From a virus (lineage: Duplodnaviria; Caudoviricetes): a DNA stretch of 64,000 nucleotides. A program made the position numbers and the translations under genes. This document shows, in pieces, positions 1 to 40,161 of the stretch. The notes beneath the pieces are model-generated. The model did no database searches. It was not told the origin of the DNA and saw only the letters and a program-made list of their open reading frames with translations. The stretch is from positions 39,170 to 103,169 of IMG/VR virus record IMGVR_UViG_3300013121_000016; one strand, written 5' to 3'. Position 1 is the first letter of the stretch, and every line of letters begins with the position of its first letter.

Positions 1-2
1 AG

Positions 3-116
3 GAGGATAAGACTATTATTATTGCGCCTTTTATTAGGCAAGCACTCAATTCTTTTAGGAATAATTCTAACTATGAGTTTATATTTACCTTTTCACTCGA
101 CGGCTCCACTGATTAA
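3..116 (+). CDS. 3' end of a gene truncated by the window edge (hypothetical)
   Basis: Open frame from the window start, EDKTIIIAPFIRQALNSFRNNSNYEFIFTFSLDGSTD, ending TAA 114-116 and overlapping the next start. Confidence 0.5.
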   Translation, partial: EDKTIIIAPFIRQALNSFRNNSNYEFIFTFSLDGSTD

Positions 117-522
117 GCAGACGGCTACTTTAACTGATATTCCGAAGCATATTGTTGAGGATGTAGTATTACATCAGTTTGCGTGGCTCAAGCAGAACCT
201 AGAGTTTCCTACGGCCACTGAGATTAAGCTGCTTCGGTTAGGCACTTTTTCCTTGCATAAAAGGATTACGTATGAAAATATTTCTAAGATAATTTCTCGC
301 TTAAAGAGGAAAGATTCGTATCTTTACACTAATTCTAATGAAGAGAAGTTAACTAAGCTTCTCAATAACTTATTATTACTTCGACACTATGCAAAAAAGT
401 CAAAAAGGTCCCGCGAAGGCTTCTTCGGTCTCCCAAGAAAATCTTCAGCAACTAATTCAATCTCAGATGATTCAGCAGCAGATGCAACATCAGAACCATC
501 AGCTCCATCTGGACACTCTTAA
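73..522 (+). CDS. HU/IHF-like DNA-binding protein
   Basis: ATG at 73; LIKQTATLTDIPKHIVEDVVLHQF...EIKLLRLGTFSL resembles the HU/IHF helix pair plus GxF beta-arm; such genes are common in crAss-like late modules. Confidence 0.55.
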   Translation: MSLYLPFHSTAPLIKQTATLTDIPKHIVEDVVLHQFAWLKQNLEFPTATEIKLLRLGTFSLHKRITYENISKIISRLKRKDSYLYTNSNEEKLTKLLNNLLLLRHYAKKSKRSREGFFGLPRKSSATNSISDDSAADATSEPSAPSGHS

Positions 523-670
523 AACTCTTACGGAGCTCTTCACTGCCACTAAGCCCGCCTCCTCGACTGAGGCAATTTCTCCACTTAATGAGAAGGTAGC
601 GACCGCTCTAGATCATCTCCTCAAACCGTTCCTTCCTCAAGAAAACGAAATCACTGATGACACTATCTAA
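389..670 (+). CDS. hypothetical protein, Gln-rich
   Basis: 93-aa ORF, overlaps both neighbours, TAA stop. Confidence 0.6.
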   Translation: MQKSQKGPAKASSVSQENLQQLIQSQMIQQQMQHQNHQLHLDTLKTLTELFTATKPASSTEAISPLNEKVATALDHLLKPFLPQENEITDDTI

Positions 671-1046
671 TATTACTCTTACTGGAGACAGGGTACTCAT
701 CGCACTAGATGAGCATCCTACTCACACTGTTACTAAAGGGAATATAGTTGTGCCGCGTTTTGAGCAAGGAGTCACAGAAGGAGGTAAGCCTCGATCTGAT
801 TTAGATTCGAGAAAACACCTCTCAGTAGGGACAGTGGTCGCTATTTCGCCCTTAGCGTCCAAGCGAATGTCTGAGGAAGAGACTCCCCTCCGCCCTGGAG
901 ACAGGGTTTACATATCGGCTACGGCTAATAATATCTCATACCAATTTATATCTGATCGTTCGCGCTTAGTCGTGGACTTTGACGGCCTGATCGCCGTGCC
1001 TCATAATTATATTGAGGCAATTGTAAATACACCAACCAATGGCTAA
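657..1046 (+). CDS. groES: GroES/Cpn10-like co-chaperonin
   Basis: LTGDRVLI, TKGNIVVP mobile-loop-like segment, GTVVAI, LRPGDRVY; GroEL lies 2.1 kb downstream. Confidence 0.75.
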   Translation: MTLSNITLTGDRVLIALDEHPTHTVTKGNIVVPRFEQGVTEGGKPRSDLDSRKHLSVGTVVAISPLASKRMSEEETPLRPGDRVYISATANNISYQFISDRSRLVVDFDGLIAVPHNYIEAIVNTPTNG

Positions 1047-1353
1047 TAAAGCTCTCAGTGCTGCACAACTTCAAAAGCAAGTTGCAGACCTTCAGGCAGC
1101 TCTTGCGTCTTCAGAGAAATTGGCTGCCGATCGCGGCCGTCTTCTCGAATACGTTGCTAATCTTTTACTTGAGATTCAAAACAAGTTCTCTAACTCCCCT
1201 GTTCTTACAAATCTGCCCAAGAAAGTTAACTTTTGGTGGCTCCTTACGAACTGGCGTGCAGTCTTAGAGTTCATCGAGTTTGTAGTTCTCAAGATTAAAG
1301 AGTTCATCAAGAATGTAAAAGTTCAGCCTAATCCAGATGCTGCTGCTCAATAA
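1039..1353 (+). CDS. hypothetical protein (N-terminal coiled coil, C-terminal amphipathic/hydrophobic segment)
   Basis: 104-aa ORF coupled to neighbours; FWWLLTNWRAVLEFIEFVVL segment. Confidence 0.7.
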   Translation: MANKALSAAQLQKQVADLQAALASSEKLAADRGRLLEYVANLLLEIQNKFSNSPVLTNLPKKVNFWWLLTNWRAVLEFIEFVVLKIKEFIKNVKVQPNPDAAAQ

Positions 1354-1840
1354 TTTTGATCCGTTCGAAGATTTCTGGGCCACAAACCCGCAGCTAAGAA
1401 TCCTCTTTAAGGAGGAGTACGATGCGAAAGTTCCATCTTCTCAGATGTGGGCTGTGGCTCTCTTCGTCCATCCATCTTCTAAGCTTTTCAATGAATCGCC
1501 GGAGAACCGCAAAAAACTTATTCTAAGTGATTATCTTAATGATCCTTCTTTTGATTTTGATTCGCTTTCTCCAACAATTGATAAGTTTAAAAGACTAGTG
1601 CTCACGAAGGCGGAGCTTCTTCTCTCTAATTGGGAGAAAAGAATGTATGATCGCGAAGCCTTCCTAGACTCGGTTCCTTACTCGCCAGACACTTTCGACA
1701 TGATCGAAAAGATGGTTAAGGAAACTCCTAAACTCTGGCAAAACCTCTTTCAAATTCAGACTGCTCTGTCAAAAGAGCAAGATACTAAGGTTGAAGGAGA
1801 TATTGAGGAGTCACTTTCTGAGAAAGGACTTCTCGACTAA
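1337..1840 (+). CDS. hypothetical helical phage protein
   Basis: 167-aa ORF; its TAA stop immediately abuts the tmRNA 5' end. Confidence 0.7.
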   Translation: MLLLNNFDPFEDFWATNPQLRILFKEEYDAKVPSSQMWAVALFVHPSSKLFNESPENRKKLILSDYLNDPSFDFDSLSPTIDKFKRLVLTKAELLLSNWEKRMYDREAFLDSVPYSPDTFDMIEKMVKETPKLWQNLFQIQTALSKEQDTKVEGDIEESLSEKGLLD

Positions 1841-2085
1841 GGGCCTGATCCTGGACATCTTTGGTTAGTTGTAATCTTTAAATGACGAATCGCTTTCTTT
1901 TGCTGCCTCAATCCCCTCGTGGGCCGTGACTTACATCCAGGCAGCTCCGCTCACCTCTACAGCGGATGACCAAGTAGAGGCACCCGAACTCCTCGAAGTT
2001 TTAGTATAGTCATTACCCTTTACACCTTACTAGCTTAATCGCCCTCTAATCAAACACGCGGGTTCGACTCCCGCCAGGTCCACCA
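1841..2085 (+). ncRNA. ssrA: tmRNA (ssrA-like), compact, 245 nt
   Basis: Acceptor stem GGGCCTG (1841-1847) / CAGGTCC (2075-2081) with G3:U70 Ala identity pair and ACCA 3' end; no D-stem; helix 2 TTTGGTTAG (1860-1868) / CTAATCAAA (2046-2054); T-arm GCGGG-TTCGACT-CCCGC; resume-like TAAAT|GAC at 1879-1886 opening DESLSFAA... Confidence 0.85.
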
Positions 2086-2102
2086 AAAGCTTGCCAGCTA
2101 TA

Positions 2103-2131
2103 GGGGGAGATTGATTAACGATCGCTCCCCC
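2103..2131 (+). other. stem-loop downstream of the tmRNA
   Basis: GGGGGAG...CTCCCCC inverted repeat; may be a processing or termination signal. Confidence 0.4.
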
Positions 2132-2165
2132 AAAGAATAACCGTTCACTTTTAAATTTTTTGCTT

Positions 2166-2267
2166 ATGTCCTACATTCAGGGGGTTTTCAACCACTGTGC
2201 ACCGACGTGTCTGCTCAACGATCATCGCCGCGATGTCCCCCAGCAGCCACCCGGTAGTCGGGTCTAA
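2166..2267 (+). CDS. possible 33-aa small protein
   Basis: ATG after an AT-rich leader (tttaaattttttgctt); MSYIQGVFNHCAPTCLLNDHRRDVPQQPPGSRV-TAA. Confidence 0.3.
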   Translation: MSYIQGVFNHCAPTCLLNDHRRDVPQQPPGSRV

Positions 2268-2354
2268 CCTTTAATCCGCTTCAAGGCTTTGGCAGATCAA
2301 AAAGTTGATCGCTTTACGGGGTAAGGGCGCTGTAATAGTGCCCTGCCCCACTAT

Positions 2355-2428
2355 AGGGTGGTAGTTCAATAGAGTTAGAATGACGGTCTTCAAAACCGTA
2401 GATGAGGGTTCGAGTCCCTACTGCCCTG
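2355..2428 (+). tRNA. opal (UGA) suppressor tRNA-Trp, anticodon UCA
   Basis: Cloverleaf: acceptor AGGGTGG/CTGCCCT, D-arm GTTC..GAAT, anticodon arm ACGGT-CT[TCA]AA-ACCGT (anticodon 2390-2392), short variable loop, T-loop TTCGAGT, discriminator G; body resembles bacterial tRNA-Trp; CCA not encoded. Confidence 0.93.
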
Positions 2429-2445
2429 CTAATTTAAACTTTGCT

Positions 2446-2727
2446 ATGGAAAACACTTGGTACAGATTTCCAATTACTGTCGTTTCTCAACAAGACTACG
2501 AGCTTTATGGTAACCAACCACCGGCTGACGCCTCTATGCGGTCGTACGTAGACTTTAGACTTGACTCAATCGTAGGCCTCAGAGCTTACTTTGAAGATGA
2601 CGGCACGGTCACTGGAACACAAATTTACACGACAGCTGGAACTGATTTTGCTGTCGATCTCAAACCATCCGAGGTACGCAAGATTCTCGGATACACACCT
2701 ATAAATAAAGAAGAACATGGAAACTAA
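2446..2727 (+). CDS. hypothetical protein
   Basis: Start moved to ATG 2446 (MENTWYRF) because the track start at 2380 lies inside the tRNA. Confidence 0.7.
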   Translation: MENTWYRFPITVVSQQDYELYGNQPPADASMRSYVDFRLDSIVGLRAYFEDDGTVTGTQIYTTAGTDFAVDLKPSEVRKILGYTPINKEEHGN

Positions 2728-2962
2728 TTATATTGAAACAGATGGAACCGTCTCAACATCTACAATGCTGAGTCATGCCATCCCTATGGCGGATTGTCCT
2801 TGTAAGAAAGAGTATGTAGAGCGCAAACAGGAACATCGCGTATCTCTATACGCCATATCAGATATGGACCCAATAAAGATTACGCAAGACTTTTCTAAAA
2901 TTATTGAGTACATACAGACACTCGGATTCAAGACGACAGGAGTCGAATTAACTCGTTGGTAA
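2717..2962 (+). CDS. hypothetical protein
   Basis: 81-aa ORF overlapping neighbours in operon fashion. Confidence 0.6.
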   Translation: METNYIETDGTVSTSTMLSHAIPMADCPCKKEYVERKQEHRVSLYAISDMDPIKITQDFSKIIEYIQTLGFKTTGVELTRW

Positions 2963-3204
2963 TGGAAATCACTATTTATTTTGAAGCTATTGATGAGGAC
3001 ACTCTTGGTAATGGGCGCACGATGGTAGCCATCGACGTTCCCTTGGCAAGGAACGTCGAGGACTTCGACAAAGTACTTGACTCTCAATTCTCAAACTTCA
3101 AGATGCGCCTCCTTACCGAGCTCTATAAAAAGTACCCCCACTACTGGCATAAGAATTCACCGATCGAACACGATAAATTAAAATCACTAGAAACGAATGG
3201 CTAG
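2956..3204 (+). CDS. hypothetical protein
   Basis: ORF coupled to groEL; the likely start is ATG 2962 (TAATG overlap). Confidence 0.6.
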   Translation: MVMEITIYFEAIDEDTLGNGRTMVAIDVPLARNVEDFDKVLDSQFSNFKMRLLTELYKKYPHYWHKNSPIEHDKLKSLETNG

Positions 3205-4810
3205 AAAAGTCATATCAGGACAAGAACTACAGGACGGATTATCAAGAGGAGTCGACATCCTTGCCGACGCTGTAGGTTCAACCCTGGGCCCACTGGGCCG
3301 AAACGCTATTATTGAGACTCCTTACGGAGCGACTACCGTGACTAAGGATGGAGTGACAGTGGCTGAGCTTATTGATCTTGAAGATCCTATCGAGAACCTT
3401 GCTGCTCAGATCCTTAAGCAAGCTGCACAGCGAACAGCCAAGGTTGCCGGAGACGGCACGACCTCTGCTACAATTATTGCGCAAACTCTCTATCAAGAAG
3501 CCCGCAAGCTTATTACGTCTGGAGTAGCTCCGATTCACATCAAACAGAGCTTCGAGCGGTTCCTAACCCAAGTTATTCCGCTCATCAGAGATAAGTCTTT
3601 AGAGGTCTCTACCAAAGAGGATATCTATCAGATTGCTCTCATCTCAGCTAATAATGATGCGCATATTGCCAGTCTTATTGCTCAGGCAATGGAATATGTT
3701 GGAAAGGATGGGACTATTACATTAGAGGAGTCAAAGACTGGGACCACTGAAGTTACACTTGTTGATGGTTACGCTTTCGAGCGTCCTTACGCGTCTCCCT
3801 ATTTTGTTACTAATCCTGCGAAAGGCGAAGTAGAATTGGATAACCCACTCATTTTCATTACAGATAAGAAGCTTCGCTACACGCAAGAGATTATTCCTAT
3901 CCTGGAACTTGCTCACGCCAATTCTCGTCCACTGCTGATTATTGCTGATGATATTGAAGGCCAAGTCTTACAGACCTTAGCAATCAACAAGATCTCCGGG
4001 ACTATTAAAGTATCAGCCTGCCGTGCACCTTCGTATGGTGAGAATCGTCTTCAAGTCTTACAGGATATTGCAGCGCACACTTCTGCTACTGTTATCTCAG
4101 AGTCTTCGGGCCAGCGCATTGAAGACACTACTTTTGAACAACTAGGCGAAGCTGCTAAAGTTCGTTCAACTCGTAACGAAACTATTATTATTGATGGAGC
4201 TAAAGATGAAGCACGTACTGAAGAGCGCGCAGAGCAAATCAGACTTGCTCTTAAAGACTACACCGGTGACTCTTATTACCACAAGCAATTACAAACACGC
4301 CTCTCGAAACTCACAGCCAAAGTGGCTATCCTACATGTTGGAGCAGCAACGGAAACTGAACTCAAAGAGAAGAAGGCGCGAGTTGATGATGCACTCCGAG
4401 CTACGACGTGCGCTGTCCAAAAAGGATATGTTGTAGGTGGTGGTACTCTTCTTGCTAAACTTTCAAAACAATTTGCAAATGAAAACGACATCATATCGAC
4501 AGTTTTCGCCAGAGCTCTTTCGGCGCCGCTTCGCAGAATTGCTCAAAACGCTGGCACATCCCCGGATCTCGTCCTTGCGAAAGTACTTGAGGAAAAGAAT
4601 GAGTTTTATGGCTACAACGCGTTAACTAACGAGTATACTGACCTAATTGTTGCCGGGATCATTGATCCTACCCTGGTCGTTGAACAAGCACTACTTAACG
4701 CAGTCTCCGCTGCAAACATGCTAATTCTATCTGCTACTGGTATCTACAACATAGACCGCACGCCGCCCTACTCTCCCGGTAATTTAGGAGACTTTCAGTC
4801 AGAAGAATAA
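3197..4810 (+). CDS. groEL: chaperonin GroEL (Cpn60), phage-encoded
   Basis: TLGPLGRN, VTKDGVTVA, AGDGTTSAT, ISANND, VGAATETELKEKKARVDDAL, GIIDP motifs; no GGM tail. Confidence 0.97.
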   Translation: MARKVISGQELQDGLSRGVDILADAVGSTLGPLGRNAIIETPYGATTVTKDGVTVAELIDLEDPIENLAAQILKQAAQRTAKVAGDGTTSATIIAQTLYQEARKLITSGVAPIHIKQSFERFLTQVIPLIRDKSLEVSTKEDIYQIALISANNDAHIASLIAQAMEYVGKDGTITLEESKTGTTEVTLVDGYAFERPYASPYFVTNPAKGEVELDNPLIFITDKKLRYTQEIIPILELAHANSRPLLIIADDIEGQVLQTLAINKISGTIKVSACRAPSYGENRLQVLQDIAAHTSATVISESSGQRIEDTTFEQLGEAAKVRSTRNETIIIDGAKDEARTEERAEQIRLALKDYTGDSYYHKQLQTRLSKLTAKVAILHVGAATETELKEKKARVDDALRATTCAVQKGYVVGGGTLLAKLSKQFANENDIISTVFARALSAPLRRIAQNAGTSPDLVLAKVLEEKNEFYGYNALTNEYTDLIVAGIIDPTLVVEQALLNAVSAANMLILSATGIYNIDRTPPYSPGNLGDFQSEE

Positions 4811-7050
4811 TGATTTTACCTTCTAATCCTAAAGATTTCTTACTTAAAGAAATTCCAGATTTCCATCCTCTTTCTGCATCTTGGGCTGCTTTCTGAAGAG
4901 AGCAGTATCGATACTGCAAGGAGGGCTATTGGGTGGGTGGCACTTGAATGCCGCCTGCCCTTTACTATTATGCGAACTTTGGAACTATTAAGAAGAACAT
5001 AAAGTTTTCCTCAGCCAAAGTTTACGATCGACCAGACCTTCGAGATCTGGAATGGGACCTCTTCTATCACTACAGTGAAGCAAGAGGTTTTTCTGGTTTT
5101 AAGTATGATGACGTTTATTCGTCACACAGGATACTACTTGATCCTGACGTAACTGACGATTTTTTACTTCTTAATCTTCCTGAGACACTTAATTCTAAGG
5201 GAGAACGTAAGACATATGTGCCTGCGCGAGATTACATGCGCAAGCTACATCCCACCGCTCTTGGCCCACCGCTCTTTGACAACGAGAAGAAGAACCTTAT
5301 GCTTCTCGGCTCTCGTGACTTAGGTAAGTCGTTTGCTGTCGGTGTAGGGATGGTTGGTCACATGTTCCTCTTTCCGCCCGCTGCCAATCACACCAAACGT
5401 ATTCCTACTGAGGTTCTAGTTGGAGCATCTATTTCTGACAAGTCTCGAGATCTTCTAAAGAAGACTAAAGACTCTTTTGACTTCCTTCCGGGTAAGCGCA
5501 CTATCTCTGGTCGCACTTACCCTTCGCCATTTTATAAGCAGTACTCTGGCTCTTGGTCAGTAAACTCGGATATAAAGGCTGAATATAAGAAGAAAGTGGA
5601 TGGTCGTTGGGATACTGTTGGTAGTCGTGCTGTTATTAAACACAGGTCCTTCAACGAGAATCCGTTTGCTGCTCAAGGTACCCGCCCCGACCTTATGGTC
5701 ATTGAAGAAGCAGGTATGGCTCCCGAGCTTAAAGACATTTATGTTCACTCAGTGGATGCTCTTCGTCGCGGTCTTACCAAGACTGGTACTCTCCTTGTAC
5801 TTGGTACTGGTGGTGACATGGCTAAAGGTACACTTCCAGCCTCTGAAATGTTTTACGAGCCTGAGAAGTACGACTTCCTGGCTTTTGAAGACATTTATGA
5901 GCAGCGCGGCAAGATATGTTACTTCATACCAGCCTACTATTCGCTTGATGAATTCCGTAACGCTAATGGATATGTTGATGTAGAGAAGGCGACTAAGAAA
6001 CTTCTCAATGTACGTAAGCTCAAAGGAGGCGACTCGGGTGCGTCTACGGCACTCGATATGGAAATGCAGTATCGTCCTTTGGTGCCGTCAGAGATGTTCC
6101 TATCTAAGACAGCAAACATCTTTCCTTTTGCGGAATTGCGTCGCCGCCTCTCGGAAATACAAGCTACCTCTACTTACGAGAAACTAGAAAAAAAGGTAGA
6201 TCTGTTCTTCGATCCGTCGGCCAAGTCCTACAACGGAGTATCTTACGAGATTAACGATAGACTTAATCCAATTACTACGTTTCCTTATGATGGAGACGAT
6301 AGAGAAGGAGCTGTTGTTATTTACGAGTTCCCACAGCTTATCGACGATAAAGTACCGCAAGACGCCTACATTATTGGTTGTGACCCGTATAAAGATGATA
6401 CACAGGAAGGCCAATCGCTCGCCGCAATTTACGTCGTAAAAACCTCGAAGTACTTCTCCACTATCGGTCACGATGAGATAGTTGCTTCATATATAGGACG
6501 CCCATACATGGGTAAAGTGATTGTGAATGAGATACTTCACAAGCTGTCACTATTTTACGGCAACGCCAAGATTTACTTCGAGAACTCAGTGGGTAATGTC
6601 AAAGATTACTTTGAGCGCGTTACGCGCCTAGACTTACTTGCAACACAGCCCACGACTCTTTTCAACAAGAAGGCTTCCTACAACACTTCTCCGACACTTA
6701 TTTACGGTTATCCCATGCCCAATCAACGAGTTAAGTGGGAGGCGCTCCAGTACTTGCGTACGTGGCTTCTTACCGACCGAGGTGATGGTAAGCGCAATTT
6801 AGATCTCATATCTGACCCAGCGCTTCTTCAAGAGCTAATCTCCTTTAACCTTGACGGCAACTTCGATAGGGTGATGGGCTTGGTGGGTTGCGTTATTGGA
6901 CTGGAGGAAACCTTCAACCACACAAAACGATCACAGGAGCGAGAAGTATACTCTTCAGCTCTTGATTTAGAGATAATATCAAAGCTTACAAATAACAAAG
7001 CTTTATTCTATGAAAACTTTCCCAAAGCAAAGACTTCCATATTCGCATAA
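4810..7050 (+). CDS. terL: terminase large subunit, 746 aa with 2 TGA=Trp
   Basis: ATG 4810 overlaps the groEL TAA; in-frame TGA at 4894 and 4945 give AAF[W]REQ...EGYWVGGT[W]MPP; Walker A-like GSRDLGKS, Walker B MVIEEAG, LGTGG, RNase H-type YIIGCDPY and NFDRV. Confidence 0.92.
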
Positions 7051-9415
7051 GATAGCAAAGGATTACAAGTGGGCTAAGGAAGTGATGAACCATCTACTCG
7101 AGAATTTCACACTAGACTCCACTGCTGTAAACGCTTTCCAGACCGATTACCATAGGAAGCTTTCTAACTACCAACTTTACAATAATCAAATTAATCAAAA
7201 GGACTTCGAGCGTGAATGCAATCCACTAGGACTAGAGGTCGGTCAGATCGCTGACGAAATACAGCCTTATAATAAAGGTAACAACAAGATTCAGGTCATC
7301 CTTGGTGAGGAACTCCGTCGCCCATTCAACTTCCGTACTATCTTAGTTAATTCAGATGGAATTCGCTCTAAGATGATGTATCGCGACACCCTACTTCGCA
7401 AGTTCGTGGAGGATCAAGTTCAACAGGTGTTGTCATCTCTTTCGCAGATGTACGATCAAGAGAGACTTCAAGAAGAGACAGAGAAGATACTTAACCCCAA
7501 AGAAATAGAACGCTACATGTCGACGTCTTATTTAGATGCGCGTGAGCAGCTGGCAGCTAAAATGCTACGTTATCTTCTTCGTTCCCTCGATATACAAGAT
7601 AAGCGCAATGACGCTTTTAAGCACGGGCTCATCTCTGGTGAAGAGGTTGTCTATGTAAGCGTGCAGAATGAGCAGCCTGTGCTCGAGATTATCAATCCTC
7701 TAGGGTTCTTCTATCACAAGTCTGCTGAGACTAAGTGGATTCAAGACGGACTTTACGCGGGCTTCCGTACTTACCTTTCACCTGCTGAGATCATCGATCG
7801 ATACGGTCAATACCTTTCGGAAAAAGAGCTTAAGGACATTGATTCAGCTCTTTCAGCATTCCACGACTCTGATAACGCAATCTCGCGCTCTATGAATTAT
7901 GGACACGATCAGTTGCTTAAAGTACAGCTAGACCTCACCACGCAAGGTTCTTACTCGGATTCCTCTATCGAGGATTATCTCGTTGAGCACATAGAATGGG
8001 TGTCTCAGCGCCGCATCGGTTTTCTAGAGATCACTTCTCCAGACTCCGAGCCAGTGACTGATATGGTGTCAGAAGACTTTCCAATTCCTACTTACGCCAC
8101 ATCTCGCACCGAGACTAAGGAGTACGGCAAAAAGTGTACTTACATCGAGTGGCTTGACGAGTTAGGCAATGCCTACTCGCTTGAGTGGGGATGAATCCCA
8201 GAAGTATGGGAAGGTGTGCGCATTAACCGTAACATCTATTGCTGCATTGGTCCTAAAAAGGAGCAGTTCCGTTCAACGGACGATCCTTATACAGTTAGAC
8301 TCGGCTACCATGGTCTTGTCTATAATGCGATGAATGCTCCATCTATTGCTATGATGGATCGCATGAAGCCTTTCATCTATCTTTACATGATAGTGATGCA
8401 TAAGCTGAAGCGGCTAATTGCCCAAGATCAAGGTAAGGTGTTCCACTTCGATATATCGATGGTAGATCCTAAGATAGGTCTAGAAAAGACGCTCTACTAC
8501 CTTAAGGAGATGAATCTTGACATCTTTAATCCGCTTCAAAATGCTGACCAGCCCGGTCAAATGCAGCGCGGTAAAGTGTCTTCGTCTACGGATATGTCTA
8601 ACACACAACATATTCTTAATTACGTGTCTTTACTTGCTGCTATCGATCAACAGATCGCTGAGGTTGCAGGTGTGACTCGTCAACGCGAAGGACAGATTTC
8701 CCCTAATGAAGCTGTAACTAATGCTCAGTCTAACGCGCAAATGTCATCTGTAATCACTGAGATTTATTTCTACGCGCACGACCGGCTTTGGGAGAAAGTC
8801 CTCACTTCACTTCTGCAAGTTACACAAGCTGCCTGGAAAGGTAAGTCAATAACCAAGCAGTACGTTCTTGATGATCTTTCCCTAGCTACCCTCGAAATAT
8901 CTGCAGATCAAGAGTTCGAAGAGATAGGAGTGTTTGTTACTAACTCTGGACATGAAGTACAGATGTTCGACGCGCTCAAAGGTATATCTGATGGTCTACT
9001 GAACACCAACCGCGCTACCTTCTCTGATCTTATTGCGCTCTATCAAGCAACTTCTGCCGAAGAACTCAAGGACCTTATTAGACAATCCGAGAAAGAATCC
9101 TTCGATCGCGAAATGCAGAAACAACAGCAGCAGACTGAAGCACAAGCACAGATGCAGCAGCAACAACAAGCTTTCGAGCTTGAGAAACAACAGCGTGAAT
9201 TTGAGCACGACGTTCTCATACACGAGATTGATTCTTTTAAATTCCAGAAAGATCAAGACTCTAATGACAATCAGATACCTGATCAGCTTGAAATTGCGAA
9301 GCTAAAACTGGACGCAGCGACAAAGCAAAAGAAACTTCAACTTGAAGAAAGAGCCCTTGATATCAAGGAGAAAGAAGTCAAATTAAGGGCAAAACAGAGC
9401 TCCACAAAGAAATAG
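7010..9415 (+). CDS. portal protein, 801 aa with 1 TGA=Trp
   Basis: Two track ORFs are in one frame, joined by TGA 8192-8194 (EWG[W]IPEVWEGVRI); follows TerL; crAss-like portal motifs (VLGEELRRPF-like, GVTRQREGQI, Q-rich coiled-coil tail). Confidence 0.9.
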
Positions 9416-10529: not shown

Positions 10530-12002
10530 ATGGCAACTCCTCAATCCTCCTTTATTATTAAACAGTTGGAAGGCTTTGGTGGCTCCTTTGTAGATTCCGA
10601 TTACTTGGGCGCTTCCTACGAGATAGGTAAACCTCACGTATTCGAAGGTACGCTCATGAAAGTGTACTCTTCACAGTCCATGTTCTTCGGTCTTAAGCCG
10701 CTGATCTCCATGACTGGCGCAAAAGGCGGTACTGTTGAGATCCCTACCGAAATCTACCGTTGGTCACTGCAAGGCGCTGAAGAGCGCACTGCACGTAGCC
10801 TTGAAAACCTGGAATCGTCCAACGACACCCCGGGCTTGAATGGTACGACCTTCCGCATCAAACTTGACATCGACTACTACAAGTATCCGGATGTCCTCTT
10901 CTCGGAAGACAATGAACTTCCGCTTGCTATCCAAGAAGGCCCGATTCCTGACGGAACTGGCTTCATCTACATTGTTCGCATTCAATCGGACAATCCTACT
11001 CTCTACCTGCCTAACACGTACCTGGAACCAGGTCGCCAGTTCAACAAAGTTTGGACTTCGACTCCTTCAGAAAACAATCAATGGTACGGCACACAACAGG
11101 CTCCCAATACCTTCCAGCTCGAAGCTCAAGTTGGCTTCTTCTCTCAAGGTTTGGAAGTAACTGACAAGGCTATGCGTGAAGACGGTCGCCTGCTCATCAA
11201 ATTCCTCCACACGGATGCATCTGGTAACTCCACAGTTATCAACAAATTCATCCCTTACTACGAGGCTAAGATGCAAGACGAACTGTACCGCTCCATGGAG
11301 GTTAACCTCATGTACGGTAAGCGCTCAACCCTGCCGGGCAAAGAGAAGTACTGGACCAAAACTGGTGCTGGTTTGCGCGAGCAACTCCGCGATTCTTGGA
11401 TCGAGACATACTCCTCAGCTCTGACAGCTAACATGCTTCAGGACTACCTGATGAATATTTTCTTCGCTCGTGAAAATGAGCAGAACCGTTCGGTTCGGGC
11501 TATGACCGGTACCTTGGGCTCACTCTTGTTTCACAATGCGCTTGTCGCCATCTCCAACGGTTTCTTAACCGTTGACTCTCACTTCATCTCTTCGGCTCCC
11601 AATGGCTCGGCCGTTCCTGGCTTGGCGTATGGCGCTCAATTCACGCGCTACCGTGGACCAGAAGGTATCATTGTAGACTTGATGAAGAATGGTATGAATG
11701 ACTCTACGCTGTACTGCAAACGTTTCCACCCGCAGTATCCTGATATGCCGATTGACTCAGCTCGTATGACGTTCCTTGATTTTGGAACTTCCGGCGGTCA
11801 AAACAACATCTCGATGCTCAAAGTGAAAAACTCGTTTACTTACGGTGTTGTAGAAGGCATGGTTGGTCCTAACGGTCCTAAGACTTCGGGCACGACTTCT
11901 TCGCTCAAGCATTCCTACGATGTGGGTATGAGTGGCTCGGCTGGTATCTGGGTTAAAGATATCACGCGCTGCGGTGAACTCATCATGGACTTCGAAGGGT
12001 AA
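10530..12002 (+). CDS. major capsid protein
   Basis: 490 aa; position after portal and scaffold; YRWSL and TGAGLREQL motifs typical of crAss-like MCPs; C-ending codon bias suggests high expression; 6 TGG and no TGA. Confidence 0.85.
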   Translation: MATPQSSFIIKQLEGFGGSFVDSDYLGASYEIGKPHVFEGTLMKVYSSQSMFFGLKPLISMTGAKGGTVEIPTEIYRWSLQGAEERTARSLENLESSNDTPGLNGTTFRIKLDIDYYKYPDVLFSEDNELPLAIQEGPIPDGTGFIYIVRIQSDNPTLYLPNTYLEPGRQFNKVWTSTPSENNQWYGTQQAPNTFQLEAQVGFFSQGLEVTDKAMREDGRLLIKFLHTDASGNSTVINKFIPYYEAKMQDELYRSMEVNLMYGKRSTLPGKEKYWTKTGAGLREQLRDSWIETYSSALTANMLQDYLMNIFFARENEQNRSVRAMTGTLGSLLFHNALVAISNGFLTVDSHFISSAPNGSAVPGLAYGAQFTRYRGPEGIIVDLMKNGMNDSTLYCKRFHPQYPDMPIDSARMTFLDFGTSGGQNNISMLKVKNSFTYGVVEGMVGPNGPKTSGTTSSLKHSYDVGMSGSAGIWVKDITRCGELIMDFEG

Positions 12003-12514
12003 TGATAGAAATAGTTTTAACTGGTGTACTCTCTTTTATTTTTGGTGGTAGTTTAATTGGCTATCTTAAGTTTTATCAAGACAAGAGAAAAGATCACCTT
12101 ACATTCATAGAGTCTGATTGGCAAAGAACAAAACATGCTTATGAGACTTTACGTACCGAGGTAGACAAGTTAAAATTAGCTGTTATGCCTTCAGCTGTTC
12201 CTGAATGGAGAAAGGACATCAGAGGCACGTATGTGTACGTTTCACCACAGTATGAGATGTATATTTTACTGCCTCTGTCCCTAACCGTTCTCGATATTCT
12301 CGGGAAAACAGATGACGACGTTTTTGCAGATTATCCGGATTTTGCTGCCGTTCTAAAGGCAATTGACAATGAGGCTAGACTCTCTTACAAGAAATTCGCA
12401 GTCCGCCGTAACGTTCAATTTCCAGGACAAATGGGCACTTCAATGGTAATTAAAGAAATTTCACAGACTGTTGACGGTACTACATATTTTATAGGCCGTT
12501 GTTATCCAGAATAA
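12002..12514 (+). CDS. membrane-anchored PAS-domain protein
   Basis: N-terminal TM helix, short coiled coil, then WRKDIRGTYVYVS...ILGKTDDDVF...A...D, the PAS_4-like KD.EG.Y...GKTD.D.F pattern. Confidence 0.65.
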   Translation: MIEIVLTGVLSFIFGGSLIGYLKFYQDKRKDHLTFIESDWQRTKHAYETLRTEVDKLKLAVMPSAVPEWRKDIRGTYVYVSPQYEMYILLPLSLTVLDILGKTDDDVFADYPDFAAVLKAIDNEARLSYKKFAVRRNVQFPGQMGTSMVIKEISQTVDGTTYFIGRCYPE

Positions 12515-12517
12515 TTT

Positions 12518-12784
12518 ATGCGCAAAAAACTTAAACAGTCATCATCCTCTTCCAACTTCTGGGTTGGTCTAGCCACCCTAGGATCAGCCGCCGTCACAGC
12601 TGTTATAACTGTACTTACCTCTGATCCAGAAGCGATCAAAACAATGACATTGACTACATTCAGTACAACTATACTGATGCAAATGTCAAATATACTTTAT
12701 CATTTAAATAAGAATACTGCGATACCCACACAAGGATTGGCAGGTCCCCATACCCAGGGGGGTACAAATCTGGATACACAATGA
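12518..12784 (+). CDS. small two-TM protein, holin-like
   Basis: Basic N-terminus, SSNFWVGL, two hydrophobic segments; ends in TGA within an ATGA overlap (or TAG 12799 if read through). Confidence 0.5.
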   Translation: MRKKLKQSSSSSNFWVGLATLGSAAVTAVITVLTSDPEAIKTMTLTTFSTTILMQMSNILYHLNKNTAIPTQGLAGPHTQGGTNLDTQ

Positions 12785-13773
12785 ACAACAGAAACTTAGT
12801 ATTTATTTACACAATACCGCGTCCTTCGGCGCTCGGTCTATCTGAATGGACCTCAGACACCTCAGGTGTCAAACTTAAGAAAACTAAGGTTGGTAAGACT
12901 GCCGATTACATAAGAGCACTTTATTCGCCCACTATTGGCGGTCTTGCTAATCACATATCTTACACACCGTGGATGGAAGCAGGTGAGCCTCAGCTCGATG
13001 CAGCCGGCAAGCCACAAATGCTCCAAACAAAGTACGAAGAGAAGTGGAACCTCCCTAAAGGCTTTTTACATAACCGTCCTTTTGGTTTCCATGTTCACTC
13101 AAATAAGGCCCCTGAAGAACTTTCTTTTTTCCAGTCTTATCGCTGGAAACTTGTTGATGGCTGCACAGTCTTAGACAAGTCAAAGATGGAAGATGAAATG
13201 GGATATTTCACGATGTTAGCTTCGTCTAAAGTAGCTAACTCAGAGCGTGAGTATCGCATGCATAAATGGCCCAAAGCTCAATGGTATATTGCGCTTGAGA
13301 ATGAAAGCGAAGAAATTAAGTACGAAAAGTCACTCGCCAAAACGCACGCGTACGCAGCCCTTCACTCAACAGAGTTAACGGACAACTACAAGCGCAAATT
13401 GGTCTCACTCCTAGGCTTAGTAGATTCTACCTCCTCTATCTCACAGCAACTTATCCACAATACGCTCACGGCATTCATCGAAAACTCTTCTGCTGGTCCT
13501 GGCTCAAACATAGAAAAGTTCCAGTATTACGTCAACTTACTTAAAACGCAAGATGGTCGTGAACGCTTCGAAGCTATGTGGACTCTTAAGCAAGCAATTG
13601 ATTTGCGTATTATTGATGAGCGCCAAGATACTTACACTTGGAAACGTCCTTCAGGAACACCGCTACCAATTGCTGATCGATATTCAGAAGCCGTAGATTT
13701 CTTTATCAATCCTAAAAAGTCGGTTGAACAAGAAGAGATCCAAAGCCAAATAGACGCTAAATTACCTCGTTAA
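12781..13773 (+). CDS. conserved crAss-like protein downstream of the MCP (function unknown)
   Basis: 330 aa; KWPKAQWYI and LKQAIDLRII motifs; positional conservation. Confidence 0.65.
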   Translation: MNNRNLVFIYTIPRPSALGLSEWTSDTSGVKLKKTKVGKTADYIRALYSPTIGGLANHISYTPWMEAGEPQLDAAGKPQMLQTKYEEKWNLPKGFLHNRPFGFHVHSNKAPEELSFFQSYRWKLVDGCTVLDKSKMEDEMGYFTMLASSKVANSEREYRMHKWPKAQWYIALENESEEIKYEKSLAKTHAYAALHSTELTDNYKRKLVSLLGLVDSTSSISQQLIHNTLTAFIENSSAGPGSNIEKFQYYVNLLKTQDGRERFEAMWTLKQAIDLRIIDERQDTYTWKRPSGTPLPIADRYSEAVDFFINPKKSVEQEEIQSQIDAKLPR

Positions 13774-14510
13774 TGACTAACGCAGAACTTTATTACGCAA
13801 TAGACATCAATCTAGATCGCATTGCGACACTTGCGAATCCCGATCTAAATGTGGCGGAAAAGGACTGATTATTAACCGAGGCACAGCTGATGCTAATTAA
13901 GCAGCGCTTTTCCGCTCTGTCCAATCCTAAAAGAGCTGGCTTTGAGCATACTGAAAAGCGTATACAGGACTTAAGCTCTTTAGTAATTAAATCGCCAATC
14001 CAACCTCCGATTATTCCGACTGTCCTTGACACAGGTGTAGTCGAAGTTGACCTGGCCCAAACAATCTATCCTTACTTATTTATCATCTCGGCTTTTGCTA
14101 CAGTTGAAATAAGTGAAGATTGTCTTAAAGAAATTCCACTTAAGTTCATACAGCACGACGATTACAGAGAAATCCTAAGGGATCCTTTCAACTCACCTTC
14201 ACAAGAGTTTCTCCCTTATAATCTAGGATTAGCCTCGTCAAGACTAAATCCGTCAATGTTCGTCTATACAGGCAGCATCGACTCAACAGCAGTCAGTTCT
14301 GTGAGCGTAGAGTTCATAAGACGTCCACCAAGAGTATCATCCGGTACTTACACGTATTTGGATGGTATTACTTATCCGCAAACAGGTCTATCGGTACCAG
14401 AGCACTTACAACTTGAAGTTGTAGACTTAGCCTGTCAACTTGCGGCGCTTTCCACTCAGAATCCTGAGTACATACAGCTGCGCAATCAAAAAGTACTGAT
14501 CAACGAATAA
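13773..14510 (+). CDS. head-tail ring/adaptor-type structural protein, 245 aa with 1 TGA=Trp
   Basis: ATG 13773 (TAATG coupling); TGA 13866 gives AEKD[W]LLTEAQ; GFEHTEKRIQDLSSL and PEHLQLEVVDLA motifs. Confidence 0.75.
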
Positions 14511-38240: not shown

Positions 38241-40161
38241 ATTTTTTAACCCAGTACCATACGAGGGGGAGCTTTATGCTCCTCCAGTGGACTTTATTGC
38301 AAAAGCCTTAGATGCAACGCAAAGGCGTTTTGACGCTAACTTTGTTGAGGCTAACGCACTGAAGAATAAGTATATTAATGCTAGACCTCAGGATCGTCCT
38401 CGTGCTGATGAAATCCAGAATGAGATCTCATCTAAGATTGACGGTATAGTGCAAAAGTACTCAGGCGACTACTCACAAGCTACAAAGGATCTCTACCTTC
38501 TGAAGTCAGATATCGAGAAGAAGCTCGCACCTGGGACAGAAGGGTACACAATCTCGGAGAACTATCGACTTTACAACGAGGCTCTAAAGAACGAAAGAGA
38601 TCGCCTTGCAAAAGGAGAAATCACTCAACAACAGTTCGAAGCATTAAAGAATCATATAGATACTACGTATAAAGGAGTAGCCGCTGATCCTGTTACTGGA
38701 GCATACAATCCTACACAGATCGAGCCCCTTGCCACCTATGTAGATTCTAACAAGATCGTATCTGAAGCTCTAGACAAGCTTAAGCCTAGGGAACAGACAC
38801 GCGTAACTCCTAAGACAAATCCTGCAACAGGACAGATTGAACTATACAAGGAGACTGTCTCGGCTATCGATCCCATGGAGGGCTATCAAGCCATTCAAGA
38901 TGCCCTTATGCAGGATGATAAGTTCCAAGCGTATTGGGATCAGATTAACCGCCTTACAGGAACAGATCCTAAAGCAGCTATGCAGGAAGTTCTTTACGGA
39001 TACGCCACTTCTACAATCCCCGCACGTACCGGTATCTTCAAGCAAGCTCAAGATTTAGAGCTGCATACTAATCCACTTCAGCTTGAGGAACTCCGTTTCC
39101 GTAATCGTGTTAGATTTGATCAGTACAAGCGCAAGCAGGATCAAGCCGAGATGTATGATGGTACCGAGCTCTCTGTTCTGGGTACTGCCGCCACCGGTCC
39201 TAACATGTTTAAGCCTATTAGCTTAGAAGGTAGTTTGACTACTGGAGCACTCCCATTCATTATGGGTAGGACAGGTAAACCTAACGTAGATCAGATCCTG
39301 TCTAGCCGTTCTCGTGGGGACGTTAATTACCCACTCCTTAAGTCTATTAGAGCAGCTAATCCTAACATGCAATCTGATGACGTGCTTCGTATCTATAATG
39401 AGAATGTAGTGAAGGGTGACAAGTACGGTACAGATATATACTATACTAAATATGCTACGACCAAAGCGCAGAACGAAGAGGCTGATAGATTAATTCCTTC
39501 TCTACTTACTGGCCAAGTTCCTCTCTATGAGTACGATACTCGTACTGGACGCATCAGAAAGATTGAAGAAGCTAGCGAACGAATCAAGTTGGCCACCTCA
39601 TGGTACGATAAAGATACTCGCAAAGCTAACATCAAAGCTTTAGGCAAGTCAACCATCCAGTCTGGACATTTACCCTTCGGTACAATTCTTGCTCCAACTG
39701 GAGAAAAGGGTGGTTACTTTAGTAGCGGTACTGGCGGTAAATACTATGTTGCCGCTGACCCAGGTGTGAAAATGAATCAGTTAAACTTTGGCTTAGACGG
39801 ACATGGAGGTATTCGCAAAAAAGCATTCGGCTTTATTCAAGATCCCACACAAGACTTTGGTGATACATTCGATATCCAATTTGCAGATGGTTCCAAAGTA
39901 GAAGTCATGGGCGCCAAAGAGTACATTTACGAACCTTCGTCCAGACAAGCAATTCCTCAGGTAAGATACTATACTGTCAAGCGTAACGGTATAGGTGGTT
40001 GGGTCCCCAATTATGATGACCCTCTTACCGAAAATGGCCGCTATCTCACTCCTTATGATATAGAAATGCTCCTCATTCCTCCGTCAGAAGTAGTTAAACG
40101 TTTTCCAAGAAATCCAATTAGTCCATCTAAAGAATCAGATGTTCCATTAGAATCATATTAA
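38227..40161 (+). CDS. putative ejected/cargo protein
   Basis: 644 aa; NRF..P..Y...YAPP N-terminus; lies between the cargo and RNAP genes. Confidence 0.6.
   Translation: MALNRFFNPVPYEGELYAPPVDFIAKALDATQRRFDANFVEANALKNKYINARPQDRPRADEIQNEISSKIDGIVQKYSGDYSQATKDLYLLKSDIEKKLAPGTEGYTISENYRLYNEALKNERDRLAKGEITQQQFEALKNHIDTTYKGVAADPVTGAYNPTQIEPLATYVDSNKIVSEALDKLKPREQTRVTPKTNPATGQIELYKETVSAIDPMEGYQAIQDALMQDDKFQAYWDQINRLTGTDPKAAMQEVLYGYATSTIPARTGIFKQAQDLELHTNPLQLEELRFRNRVRFDQYKRKQDQAEMYDGTELSVLGTAATGPNMFKPISLEGSLTTGALPFIMGRTGKPNVDQILSSRSRGDVNYPLLKSIRAANPNMQSDDVLRIYNENVVKGDKYGTDIYYTKYATTKAQNEEADRLIPSLLTGQVPLYEYDTRTGRIRKIEEASERIKLATSWYDKDTRKANIKALGKSTIQSGHLPFGTILAPTGEKGGYFSSGTGGKYYVAADPGVKMNQLNFGLDGHGGIRKKAFGFIQDPTQDFGDTFDIQFADGSKVEVMGAKEYIYEPSSRQAIPQVRYYTVKRNGIGGWVPNYDDPLTENGRYLTPYDIEMLLIPPSEVVKRFPRNPISPSKESDVPLESY

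Follow-up and report, generated by a model that had tools for sequence, protein, structure and literature searches.

A minimal tmRNA and a tRNA-Trp(UCA) in an ancestral gene block upstream of the terminase gene of a TGA-recoded phage

Results

Gene content of the cluster

The window is a 64,000-nucleotide stretch of a caudovirus record from a crAss-like phage, and near its start a 4.2-kb cluster of protein and RNA genes leads into the gene of the large terminase TerL (Table 1). As originally predicted, profile and RNA searches find a GroES-like gene, a tmRNA (below default thresholds), a tRNA(UCA), GroEL, and TerL, with the GroEL stop and the TerL start overlapping in TAATG. The GroES-like ORF matches Pfam Cpn10 at 27.5 bits (cut-off 21.1) and phrog_3188 (co-chaperonin) at 6.8e-5, and a profile of its family matches Cpn20/23 co-chaperonins at 7.6e-4. 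GroEL matches Pfam Cpn60_TCP1 (2.6e-66) and phrog_5725 (7e-135).

Table 1 Features of the cluster and the first gene behind it, in window coordinates
Feature	Position	Strand	Remarks
GroES-like co-chaperonin gene	657..1046	+	stop TAA; Pfam Cpn10, PHROG phrog_3188
o1039, 104-aa protein	1039..1353	+	3 Trp codons, TGG in 3/3; homologues in relatives of both codes
o1337, 167-aa all-helical protein, conserved in crAss-like phages	1337..1840	+	4 Trp codons, TGG in 4/4
Minimal one-piece tmRNA, 245 nt	1841..2085	+	ARAGORN -ps; custom tRNA-like-domain scan; covariation
Candidate tmRNA tag reading frame	1884..2009	+	resume codon GAC after UAAAU; 41 codons to TAG, end ...PELLEVLV
tmRNA-tRNA spacer, 269 nt	2086..2354	+	predicted strongly structured
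tRNA-Trp-like opal suppressor, anticodon UCA, 75 nt	2355..2429	+	Rfam tRNA 55.7 bits
o2446, 93-aa orphan ORF	2446..2727	+	no Pfam or PHROG match
o2717, 81-aa orphan ORF	2717..2962	+	no Pfam or PHROG match
o2956, 82-aa protein	2956..3204	+	directly 5' of GroEL
GroEL chaperonin gene, 537 aa	3197..4810	+	stop TAA overlaps TerL ATG
Large terminase TerL	4810..7050	+	first recoded gene after the cluster; phrog_6681 1.2e-98

The AlphaFold model of o1337 (pLDDT 82.8) has its best fold matches in uncharacterised proteins of the crAss-like phages cr85_1 and cr50_1, and homologues of o1337 are present at 25 loci of either code. Homologues of o2956 occur in the sister phage and in one relative clade, which includes the TGA-free relative L002; the Atlas gives no informative match. 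For o2446 and o2717, no homologue is found in 56 related loci or in five relative genomes, one of which is that of the recoded sister phage with the same tmRNA. The suggestion that one of the small ORFs inhibits RF2 or partners the tmRNA is not borne out, as o1039 and o1337 are present under either code and o2446 and o2717 have no homologue in the five relatives.

The protein genes form an ancestral block

The gene order GroES-o1039-o1337-[slot]-GroEL-TerL is present at 56 loci of both codes, and the GroES-like gene itself is found in recoded and standard-code relatives. The best named relative of TerL is that of Cellulophaga phage phi14:2 (32.8% identity over 96% of the protein). Phage phi14:2 (Crassvirales) has a genome of ~100 kb in which GroEL is among the small genes that head the TerL-portal-capsid block, with the middle promoters P108 and P110 immediately 5' of this GroEL-headed block (bioRxiv 10.1101/2020.03.07.982082). 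In contrast to the present phage, phi14:2 uses the standard code, and the annotation of the stretch examined lists no GroES-like gene, tRNA, or tmRNA.

GroES, o1039, o1337, and GroEL are thus ancestral crAss-like genes, not code-switch parts. The chaperonin had been assigned to the recoding module, but the GroES and GroEL genes precede TerL in standard-code relatives and GroEL is also present in phi14:2, indicating that the chaperonin is unconnected with recoding. Since standard-code relatives have the GroES and GroEL genes at the same place, together with two of the five small genes, the code change is tracked by the two RNAs alone.

TGA encodes tryptophan, and the code differs between gene blocks

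TerL is open only when TGA is a sense codon. In-frame TGA is present at codons 29 (4894-4896) and 46 (4945-4947), and at the codon-29 column 17 relatives have W and 12 have TGA. When relatives are aligned, TGA falls on columns of conserved Trp in TerL, portal, and o1337; in o1337 the TGA codons are those of the relatives. TGA therefore encodes Trp.

No cluster ORF contains an in-frame TGA, in contrast to the two in TerL. These counts, given in the original prediction, are correct, but the host-code deduction drawn from them fails: Trp codons are missing altogether from GroEL and GroES, a cluster with 10 Trp codons would be TGA-free with P=0.24 at the late-block TGA share of 13%, and the stops are TAA or TAG throughout, as in the recoded blocks. 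GroEL is poor in Trp in general (0.78 per 1000 codons in 47 homologues), 13 of 27 late genes are TGA-free, and TGA makes up 19% of the Trp codons of o1337 in the relatives, compared with 20% for TerL. The lack of TGA from the cluster is no more than chance and carries no evidential weight.

Across the genome, TGA is used differently from block to block. The reading frames of PolA, DnaB, and the SF2 helicase stay intact only if TGA is read as a sense codon. In the early block at 16.7-34.6 kb, TGA is the stop codon of 18 of the 27 minus-strand ORFs, and in nine of these it forms part of an ATGA overlap; the code-11 reading gives better tiling there, and three of these ORFs have domain matches when read under code 11. 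At 34.6-44.0 kb, TGA is neither stop nor sense in any of 18 genes (Fisher 4e-6 versus the early block). This TGA-free zone covers both sides of a divergent junction and contains the cluster, between the TGA-stop early block and the replication genes with TGA as Trp; therefore, the cluster is translatable under either code, before and after a switch. The co-existence of an early block with TGA as stop and blocks with TGA as Trp in one genome calls for a switch during infection.

If the host itself used code 4, no switch would occur and the tRNA would merely boost supply. TGA as Trp in replication as well as virion genes would fit such a host. However, the TGA-ending genes of the early block, their ATGA start/stop overlaps, and the better code-11 tiling all oppose it, as does TGA as stop in late genes of sister lineages. 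Moreover, the hosts of the nearest named relatives are Bacteroidota, a group with the standard genetic code. We consider a code-4 host extremely improbable.

The suppressor tRNA and the spacer

The tRNA(UCA) has an A1-U72 pair, a G73 discriminator, and a short variable loop, and is 78.5% identical to an annotated phage tRNA-Trp; it lacks the second CCA arm present in most relatives. It is a plausible UGA=Trp decoder. SmpB, release factor, and TrpRS genes were looked for in the phage and not found; because the phage has no TrpRS, the tRNA is presumably charged by host TrpRS. The earlier statement that the tRNA unlocks UGA-containing late genes is right about the plausible decoder but too narrow about its targets, since the replication genes contain TGA as well.

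The fold of the spacer between the two RNAs has a z-score of -3.09, and none of 200 shuffles is equally stable. Two CTATAGGG motifs are located in the spacer, at 2098 and 2351; 5 such motifs are observed versus 1.44 expected. No homologue of the spacer is found in relatives by nhmmer.

A minimal tmRNA with a candidate tag frame

The acceptor stem of the tmRNA is formed by 1841-1847 and 2075-2081 and includes G3:U70, and the P2 helix pairs 1861-1868 with 2046-2053. The T arm (2058-2074) is followed by the discriminator A (2082) and an encoded CCA (2083-2085). There are no pseudoknots and no space for any. The molecule is detected by ARAGORN -ps but stays below the ARAGORN default and the Rfam gathering score, Rfam giving only an 18.5-bit local match at the 3' end. 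Relatives have homologues at this position, of which several pass the ARAGORN defaults and one the Rfam gathering score. RNAalifold shows covariation in the acceptor stem, P2, and the T arm, with G3:U70 invariant. In the sister phage, the homologue (nhmmer 4.7e-9) has a T loop that deviates from the norm, and its gene does not encode the CCA.

Bacterial tmRNA (ssrA, Rfam RF00023) shares the G3:U70 acceptor stem, the T arm, the ACCA end, the P2 helix, and a U(-5)A(-4) context ahead of the candidate resume codon. The two differ in size (245 nt here, 374 positions in the Rfam consensus model) and in the loss of pseudoknots. The candidate tag is also unlike the short, ...ALAA-type bacterial tags (ARAGORN readings), being 41 aa long and acidic with an LV end. 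The resume context UAAAU/NNN (UAAUC/GAC in L061; the slash marks the resume point) and a C-terminus E-L/V-x-x-V-x-A/V recur in five lineages, and this context conforms to the U85/A86 rule for E. coli tmRNA (PMC2481249). The frame shows no third-position bias, and its open length is within chance.

Alternatively, the mini-tmRNA may be a decoy. Its tRNA-like domain would soak up host SmpB (and AlaRS or EF-Tu), so that host trans-translation is blocked and UGA-paused phage proteins escape the degradation tag. Clear conservation confined to the tRNA-like domain and P2, the loss of every pseudoknot, and a tag frame without coding signature are consistent with a decoy, as is the sister copy, which retains the stems and has lost the T-loop consensus and CCA. 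Mycobacteriophage DS6A has little beyond the tRNA-like domain of tmRNA, and the relevant passages of PMC4131195 describe a similar molecule that strongly inhibits tmRNA, perhaps via SmpB titration. However, a pure decoy needs neither the rule-conforming resume context nor the fixed stop-to-3'-domain distance and similar C-terminal peptide of the five lineages, and the tmRNA of the window retains G3:U70 and the encoded CCA. A decoy is therefore possible but unlikely.

The tmRNA is confined to recoded lineages

Nine of the 13 recoded lineages have the tmRNA, as against none of the 8 others (Fisher 0.0046), and the custom scan finds no tRNA-like-domain signature in any standard-code locus. Only three phylogenetically independent contrasts are available; two agree, one shows no difference, and a sign test on this number cannot reach significance. 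The expected co-occurrence with recoding thus holds for the tmRNA in part, as four recoded lineages (L003, L028, L038, and L048) lack it, and it does not hold for o1039 and o1337. Absence from these four lineages indicates that the tmRNA is dispensable.

Between o1337 and GroEL, the slot spans 0.25-1.6 kb where the relative uses the standard code and 1.4-4.7 kb where it is recoded. In L061 and L013, two copies of the tmRNA 3' end flank an insert of ~540 nt that carries a zinc-ribbon ORF; the slot of L038 contains a group I intron, and GroEL of L061 carries an intein-type LAGLIDADG insert. These selfish elements raise the question of whether the tmRNA is a passenger in decay. In that case, mobile DNA would insert at the slot, tRNA and tmRNA genes would accumulate there as homing targets or cargo, and the link to recoding would come from shared descent. 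The stepwise decrease in tmRNA size (459 to 324 to about 260 to 232-245 nt) points in the same direction, and shared descent is compatible with the small number of independent contrasts. Against a passenger, the tmRNA is retained in at least nine recoded lineages on either side of the tree midpoint (used for display only), compensatory changes preserve its stems, and it never occurs in standard-code relatives that have the same slot. On balance, we regard a passenger as doubtful.

Discussion

Borges et al. (bioRxiv 10.1101/2021.08.26.457843) have already described the idea of a code change module written in the standard code. In the TGA-recoded Jade phages of that study, as here, a suppressor tRNA(UCA) lies directly 5' of TGA-containing genes, the adjoining genes are translatable under the standard code, and a standard-code host with a code switch during infection is predicted. 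The Jade module differs in comprising a tRNA, TrpRS, and RF1 and in lying 5' of a lysis cassette; the present phage has neither TrpRS nor release factor, and a tmRNA instead. Replication genes, recoded in the present phage, are variably recoded in theirs, and tmRNA has 0 occurrences in the text of Borges et al.

Genes for tmRNA are found in ~2.3% of phage genomes. Those of the mycobacteriophage Bxz1 group, DS6A, Bacillus phage G, and OM43 phage Melnitz resemble the present one in that no phage SmpB accompanies them and their role is putative. The relevant passages of these papers describe no link to stop-codon recoding (PMC4131195; PMC9004378), whereas the present tmRNA adjoins a suppressor tRNA and occurs in recoded members only.

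The original prediction joined all four functions into one dedicated module kept deliberately in the host code, in which the tRNA unlocks late genes, the tmRNA clears UGA read-through ribosomes, the chaperonin folds giant virion proteins, and one small ORF either inhibits RF2 or works with the tmRNA. Its parts are indeed adjacent and tightly packed (ORF overlaps 1-17 nt), no cluster gene contains TGA, the tmRNA is restricted to recoded relatives, and the published module offers a precedent. However, the Trp-free chaperonins make the lack of TGA uninformative, the o1337 homologues use TGA as often as TerL, four of the protein genes also occur in standard-code relatives, recoding reaches the replication genes, the two orphan ORFs are missing from the recoded sister phage, and the phage has no release factor, TrpRS, or SmpB. 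Such a module is very unlikely in full; the part that stands is the tRNA as a plausible decoder together with a tmRNA found in recoded relatives only, and the chaperonins, o1039, and o1337 are code-independent.

We favour, with some confidence, an ancestral gene block plus a variable slot that holds RNA genes. This reading builds on the gene identities, TGA as Trp, the code zones, and the distribution among relatives; expression timing, tRNA charging, and tmRNA activity are its conjectural parts. The first layer is the crAss-like block (GroES-like, o1039, o1337, and GroEL) ahead of TerL under either code, and the second the slot from o1337 to GroEL, which in recoded lineages holds RNA genes, here the minimal tmRNA and tRNA-Trp(UCA). 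Judged solely by analogy with phi14:2, the cluster is probably the head of a middle-class transcription unit made by host RNA polymerase. The tRNA-Trp(UCA) would be the working code-switch part, turning UGA into Trp in the replication and virion blocks, while the genes of the intervening early block still end in UGA. The tmRNA would be an accessory of recoded lineages only that most likely uses host AlaRS and SmpB and targets ribosomes stalled by the UGA conflict. The cluster is a variant of the known phage code-change module, in which the role of the tmRNA is putative.

Gene organization of the cluster

The phage genome is complete (103,169 bp, with direct terminal repeats), and the window is its last 64 kb. 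The GroES-like ORF, the tmRNA, tRNA(UCA), GroEL, and TerL are found where the original prediction had placed them. In agreement with it, the GroEL stop overlaps the TerL start in TAATG, and TerL, the first gene after the cluster, carries two in-frame TGA codons (codons 29 and 46). The cluster ORFs overlap one another by 1–17 nt and thus form one apparent translation unit. The GroES-like ORF scores above the Cpn10 cut-off, but the match is N-terminal only; the PHROG match spans residues 5–106 of the protein, and the family profile matches Cpn20/23 in a PDB profile search. With both Cpn60 and Cpn10 domains detected, the cluster is predicted to encode a chaperonin pair.

Genes and code zones (positions in kb refer to genome G000, the whole 103-kb genome, in which the window begins at 39170; other positions refer to the window)
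Feature	Position	Strand	Evidence or content
GroES-like ORF	657-1046	+	Pfam Cpn10 27.5 bits, PHROG co-chaperonin
o1039	1039-1353	+	product unknown
o1337	1337-1840	+	product unknown
RNA zone (tmRNA to tRNA)	1841-2429	+	
o2446	2446-2727	+	
o2717	2717-2962	+	
o2956	2956-3204	+	
GroEL	3197-4810	+	Cpn60_TCP1 2.6e-66
TerL	4810-7050	+	phrog_6681 1.2e-98; single open frame only with TGA as sense
Replication genes	0.2-16.6 kb	-	PolA, DnaB-like helicase, SF2 helicase intact only with TGA as sense
Early block, TGA = stop	16.7-34.6 kb	-	TGA stop in 18/27 ORFs, with ATGA overlaps in nine of these
TGA-free zone	34.6-44.0 kb	both sides of divergent junction ~38.7-39.2 kb	18 genes, whole cluster included
Virion genes	44-100 kb	+	22 TGA vs 145 TGG

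TerL has 142 matches, led by phi14:2 and crAss-like phages of Bacteroides and Flavobacterium. The protein o1337 is predicted to be helical (pLDDT 82.8), and its fold matches solely uncharacterised proteins of gut crAss-like phages. By TerL type, gene order, and o1337 fold, the phage is crAss-like (Crassvirales), which is not a formal taxonomic assignment. Identification of o1337 as a small terminase was rejected: the Atlas score is just 0.75, Foldseek gives no significant terminase match, and the PDB profile search finds nothing.

In phi14:2, the nearest studied relative, GroEL likewise heads the TerL-portal-capsid block, and that block is closely preceded by middle promoters of the host RNA polymerase (bioRxiv 10.1101/2020.03.07.982082). 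In 12 of 14 further crAss-like phages, a tRNA gene is preceded by the same promoter motif (bioRxiv 10.1101/2020.03.07.982082). By analogy, the cluster may belong to the middle class of transcription. A scan of window positions 1–5200 for sigma-70 promoters and terminators gives counts not above those of shuffled sequences.

TGA usage along the genome

The genome layout is three-state, with TGA as stop, absent, or as Trp. The code-11 reading tiles the early block better (0.97 vs 0.88 at 24–28 kb), three early-block ORFs have Pfam domain matches under code 11, and read-through of the TGA stops would extend the proteins by just 0–48 residues. A weak Toprim match also lies among the replication genes. 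In the TGA-free zone, TGA is neither stop nor sense (Fisher 4e-6 versus the early block). Since TGA is stop in one zone and Trp in others, the code must change in the course of infection, and in the host TGA is most likely a stop. The suppressor tRNA had been proposed to unlock the late genes. The late genes do need it, but the replication genes are recoded as well; therefore, tRNA(UCA) is needed for both, and the proposal was too narrow.

The cluster ends its genes in TAA or TAG only, like the recoded blocks and unlike the block in which TGA is stop. Lacking TGA of any kind, it is therefore translatable under either code. This absence had been read as a sign that the cluster is kept in the host code, but the codon counts make it uninformative. 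GroEL and GroES contain no Trp codon and the whole cluster only 10; GroEL has 0.78 Trp per 1000 codons across 47 homologues, vs about 12 for TerL and portal. If 13% of Trp codons are TGA, as in the late block, the 10 cluster Trp codons would include no TGA with probability 0.24, and TGA is missing from 13 of the 27 late genes too. In addition, relatives carry TGA within o1337, the only cluster gene that is both Trp-rich and well supplied with homologues; its share of Trp codons there in recoded members is 17/90 vs 94/467 in TerL, no difference (P=0.89). These counts indicate that no family-wide rule holds the block TGA-free. A stop codon missing from Trp-free genes is not to be taken as a signal.

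In the late genes (window 4810–60849), TGA lies nearer the 5' end than TGG, with median relative positions of 0.21 vs 0.50 (Mann-Whitney P=0.046 for relative and 0.013 for absolute position). The replication genes have no 5' bias of TGA.

The suppressor tRNA

The tRNA at 2355–2429 is a plain 75-nt cloverleaf with anticodon UCA (ARAGORN tca; Rfam tRNA 55.7 bits), 78.5% identical to an annotated phage tRNA-Trp. Its acceptor strands, AGGGUGG and CUGCCCU, are followed by G, giving an A1-U72 pair and a G73 discriminator, which are Trp-type acceptor determinants. When TerL, portal, and o1337 are aligned with 56 related loci, TGA falls mostly at conserved Trp columns, indicating that TGA is read as Trp. 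In the column of TerL codon 29, for instance, 17 sequences have W and 12 have TGA. By weighted count, the residues aligned with TGA are W in 7.4 of 18 TerL columns and 7.0 of 12 portal columns, the remainder being mostly Y or F. The 103-kb genome contains no tRNA-synt_1b (TrpRS) domain and no RF-1 release factor domain. In the favoured reading, tRNA(UCA) is the switch, its charging with Trp being predicted.

In most recoded relatives, tRNA(UCA) is 94–100 nt long, and what would be its "variable arm" forms a second, anticodon-like hairpin that presents CCA, the usual Trp anticodon (L004 4526–4623; L006 5626–5719; L027 5561–5654; L037 2115–2208; L048 3368–3467; L051 about 5275–5375; L numbers denote TerL-related loci). 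The window tRNA lacks this CCA decoy arm; the plain form of 73–75 nt is found in the window and L003. Two loci carry a tRNA-like element of 105–115 nt that ARAGORN does not call, with a 7-bp acceptor stem, a canonical T arm, and an odd middle (L013 about 4860–4970; L027 about 4317–4432). In L061, a recoded sister phage, the slot (the variable stretch between o1337 and GroEL) holds two tRNA genes, at 9117–9200 and 9259–9344: a tRNA-Ser(UGA) and an unusual tRNA of 86 nt. No recognisable tRNA(UCA) is found in L061, though its TerL has 4 TGA codons; the slot was searched by ARAGORN and an anticodon-loop scan, and the search of the complete genome used the Rfam tRNA model alone, which does not detect two-armed forms.

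A reduced tmRNA next to the suppressor tRNA

ARAGORN with a lowered threshold (-ps) calls a tmRNA exactly at 1841–2085. The RNA is called neither by ARAGORN at default nor at the Rfam RF00023 gathering score (47 bits), the Rfam match being local (18.5 bits) and confined to the 3' end. The acceptor stem of 7 bp pairs GGGCCUG with CAGGUCC, includes G3:U70, and is followed by ACCA; the T arm is GCGGG-UUCGACU-CCCGC, and the discriminator A and CCA end are present. The RNA thus possesses the defining tRNA-like domain of ssrA. A P2 helix of 8 pairs (1861–1868 with 2046–2053) links the 5' and 3' halves in place of an anticodon arm.

Relatives, searched with a custom scan for the tRNA-like domain, carry homologues at the equivalent site, directly after the o1337 homologue. 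Several are called at ARAGORN default; the L051 copy reaches 49.2 bits over its full length, above the Rfam gathering score, the L053 copy has a full-length match below it, and the sister phage copy aligns with that of the window at 4.7e-9. In an RNAalifold alignment of five homologous copies, G3:U70 is invariant, and the acceptor (pairs 4–6), P2, and T stem show compensatory changes. A stretch of ~40 nt found upstream of the tag in other relatives is missing from the copies of the window and L061. In the window, only 15 nt separate P2 from the resume codon and ~36 nt the stop from P2; therefore, no pseudoknot (PK1, PK2-4) fits.

Searching viral contigs with the pattern "UAAAUGAC ... T arm" adds no tmRNA to those of the related loci. 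When bacterial genomes are searched for the 3' end of the tmRNA, matches come from many phyla, with likeness confined to the T arm and no clue to host or donor. No SmpB domain is found anywhere in the 103-kb genome, and alanine charging and trans-translation would therefore need host factors. The tRNA-like domain of the DS6A tmRNA is proposed to titrate SmpB (PMC4131195); that the present RNA is likewise a decoy titrating SmpB seems unlikely.

The spacer between tmRNA and tRNA (2086–2354) folds more stably than shuffled sequences (z = -3.1), with a strong hairpin immediately 5' of the tRNA. Two CTATAGGG motifs lie in the spacer, for which neither an Rfam family nor a homologue among the relatives is found. 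CTATAGGG is similar to a T7-type promoter end, but the likeness is not convincing: 3 of 100 shuffles attain its 5 copies (1.44 expected).

The candidate tag frame

The candidate tag starts at UAAAU|GAC and runs for 41 codons to TAG. The start context agrees with the U85/A86 frame-setting rule, shown for the E. coli tmRNA (PMC2481249). The resume context (UAAUC|GAC in L061) recurs in five lineages, with the stop similarly spaced from the 3' domain and the tag C-termini alike (...ELLEVLV, ...QEVLV, ...ELVYA, ...ELVEVHA). However, substitutions in the frame have no third-position bias, and open runs of 34–59 codons arise in 14–64% of shuffles of these short RNAs. A translated long tag is thus unsupported by either test, and the tag is a candidate only. 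Among the roles ranked for the tmRNA, active rescue and tagging with host SmpB comes first; taken alone, it is possible, if rather doubtful.

Distribution among relatives

The TerL search yields 56 related loci of 46–75% identity. Their conserved order is GroES - (o1039) - o1337 - [slot] - (o2956) - GroEL - TerL - portal. In the TerL and portal trees, recoded and non-recoded members are intermingled, which takes 5 or more state changes; some relatives have true TGA stops. Four loci (L002, L017, L023, and L030) have neither TGA stops nor in-frame TGA across 8–15 kb and could be the stop-depleted intermediate stage towards reassignment proposed by Borges et al.

GroES, o1039, o1337, and GroEL are present whatever the code. 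The chaperonins, which the original prediction counted among the parts of the switch, thus occur in standard-code relatives too; the chaperonin genes, o1039, and o1337 are ancestral neighbours. The slot measures 0.25–1.6 kb in standard-code vs 1.4–4.7 kb in recoded members. Among lineages with an intact slot, tmRNA is found in 9 of 13 recoded vs 0 of 8 others (Fisher 0.0046), and tRNA(UCA) in 8 of 13 vs 0 of 8. The co-occurrence with recoding therefore runs in the direction expected, both RNAs being recoded-only, but the test is underpowered: the phylogenetically independent contrasts number just three, of which two agree and one shows no difference. Moreover, four recoded lineages (L003, L028, L038, and L048) lack a tmRNA signature in the tRNA-like-domain scan, and the tmRNA is therefore not obligatory.

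One of the small ORFs had been suggested to inhibit RF2 or to partner the tmRNA. This suggestion is not supported: o1039 and o1337 are code-independent, and neither o2446 nor o2717 has a homologue among the 56 loci or in five relative genomes (four of them 92–100% complete), among them the recoded sister phage carrying the same tmRNA. o2956 tracks one clade, a TGA-free member included. The latter three show no link to the switch, and nothing ties any small ORF to RF2 or the tmRNA.

Relatives also carry insertions. In L061 (8263–8818) and L013 (1976–2565), two copies of the tmRNA 3' end flank an insert of ~540 nt, which in L061 holds an ORF that is Cys-rich and zinc-ribbon-like. The first of the two copies ends ...CTCCAAGCG; in L061, it has GGCAGTG in place of the T loop TTCGANT, and the second copy ends ...CTCCACCA. 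Group I introns are present in L038 (5545–5786 and 16821–16921) and L051 (15510–15731), one of them within the slot upstream of GroEL. The L061 GroEL (11612–14203) is a single frame of 863 aa with an in-frame insert of ~325 aa. Homing-endonuclease domains (LAGLIDADG and Hom_end) lie in the insert, so that this phage chaperonin probably contains an intein. The duplications around an inserted ORF, the intron, and the intein are evidence that the slot is a hot spot for mobile DNA. That the tmRNA is a passenger decaying there is a role we consider improbable, on a par with that of decoy.

Discussion

Borges et al. describe in Jade phages a standard-code "code change module" of tRNA, TrpRS, and RF1 (bioRxiv 10.1101/2021.08.26.457843), and model infection as early standard-code genes followed by late recoded genes (bioRxiv 10.1101/2021.08.26.457843). 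The present case is a variant of that module. The genes just upstream of its recoded genes are free of TGA and fit either code; of the tRNA, matching synthetase, and release factor, only the tRNA is found. In place of the other two it carries a tmRNA, and recoding extends to the replication genes. Borges et al. never mention tmRNA, and our literature search, of incomplete coverage, found no paper that connects tmRNA with phage recoding. Other phages are known to carry tmRNAs, which lack an explanation (PMC4131195; PMC9004378).

Most probably, the cluster is an ancestral middle-gene block whose variable slot retains, in recoded lineages, the suppressor tRNA and in many cases a reduced tmRNA. 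Reading UGA as Trp would cause read-through of UGA-terminated host and early-phage messages, and some ribosomes would reach the end of the mRNA without terminating. Together with host SmpB, the phage tmRNA could rescue these ribosomes and add a long acidic tag with the conserved ending ...E-L/V-x-x-V-x-A/V. That the suppressor tRNA has in the mini-tmRNA a functional partner adapted to the phage, which clears run-off ribosomes and replaces the host degron with its own acidic tag, is as a whole a long shot. If true, what becomes of the by-products of the code change would be under phage control, and trans-translation would be a recurring part of natural genetic-code switching. A rescue RNA beside the suppressor tRNA, in recoded members only (of one lineage), is a testable candidate for handling code conflict.
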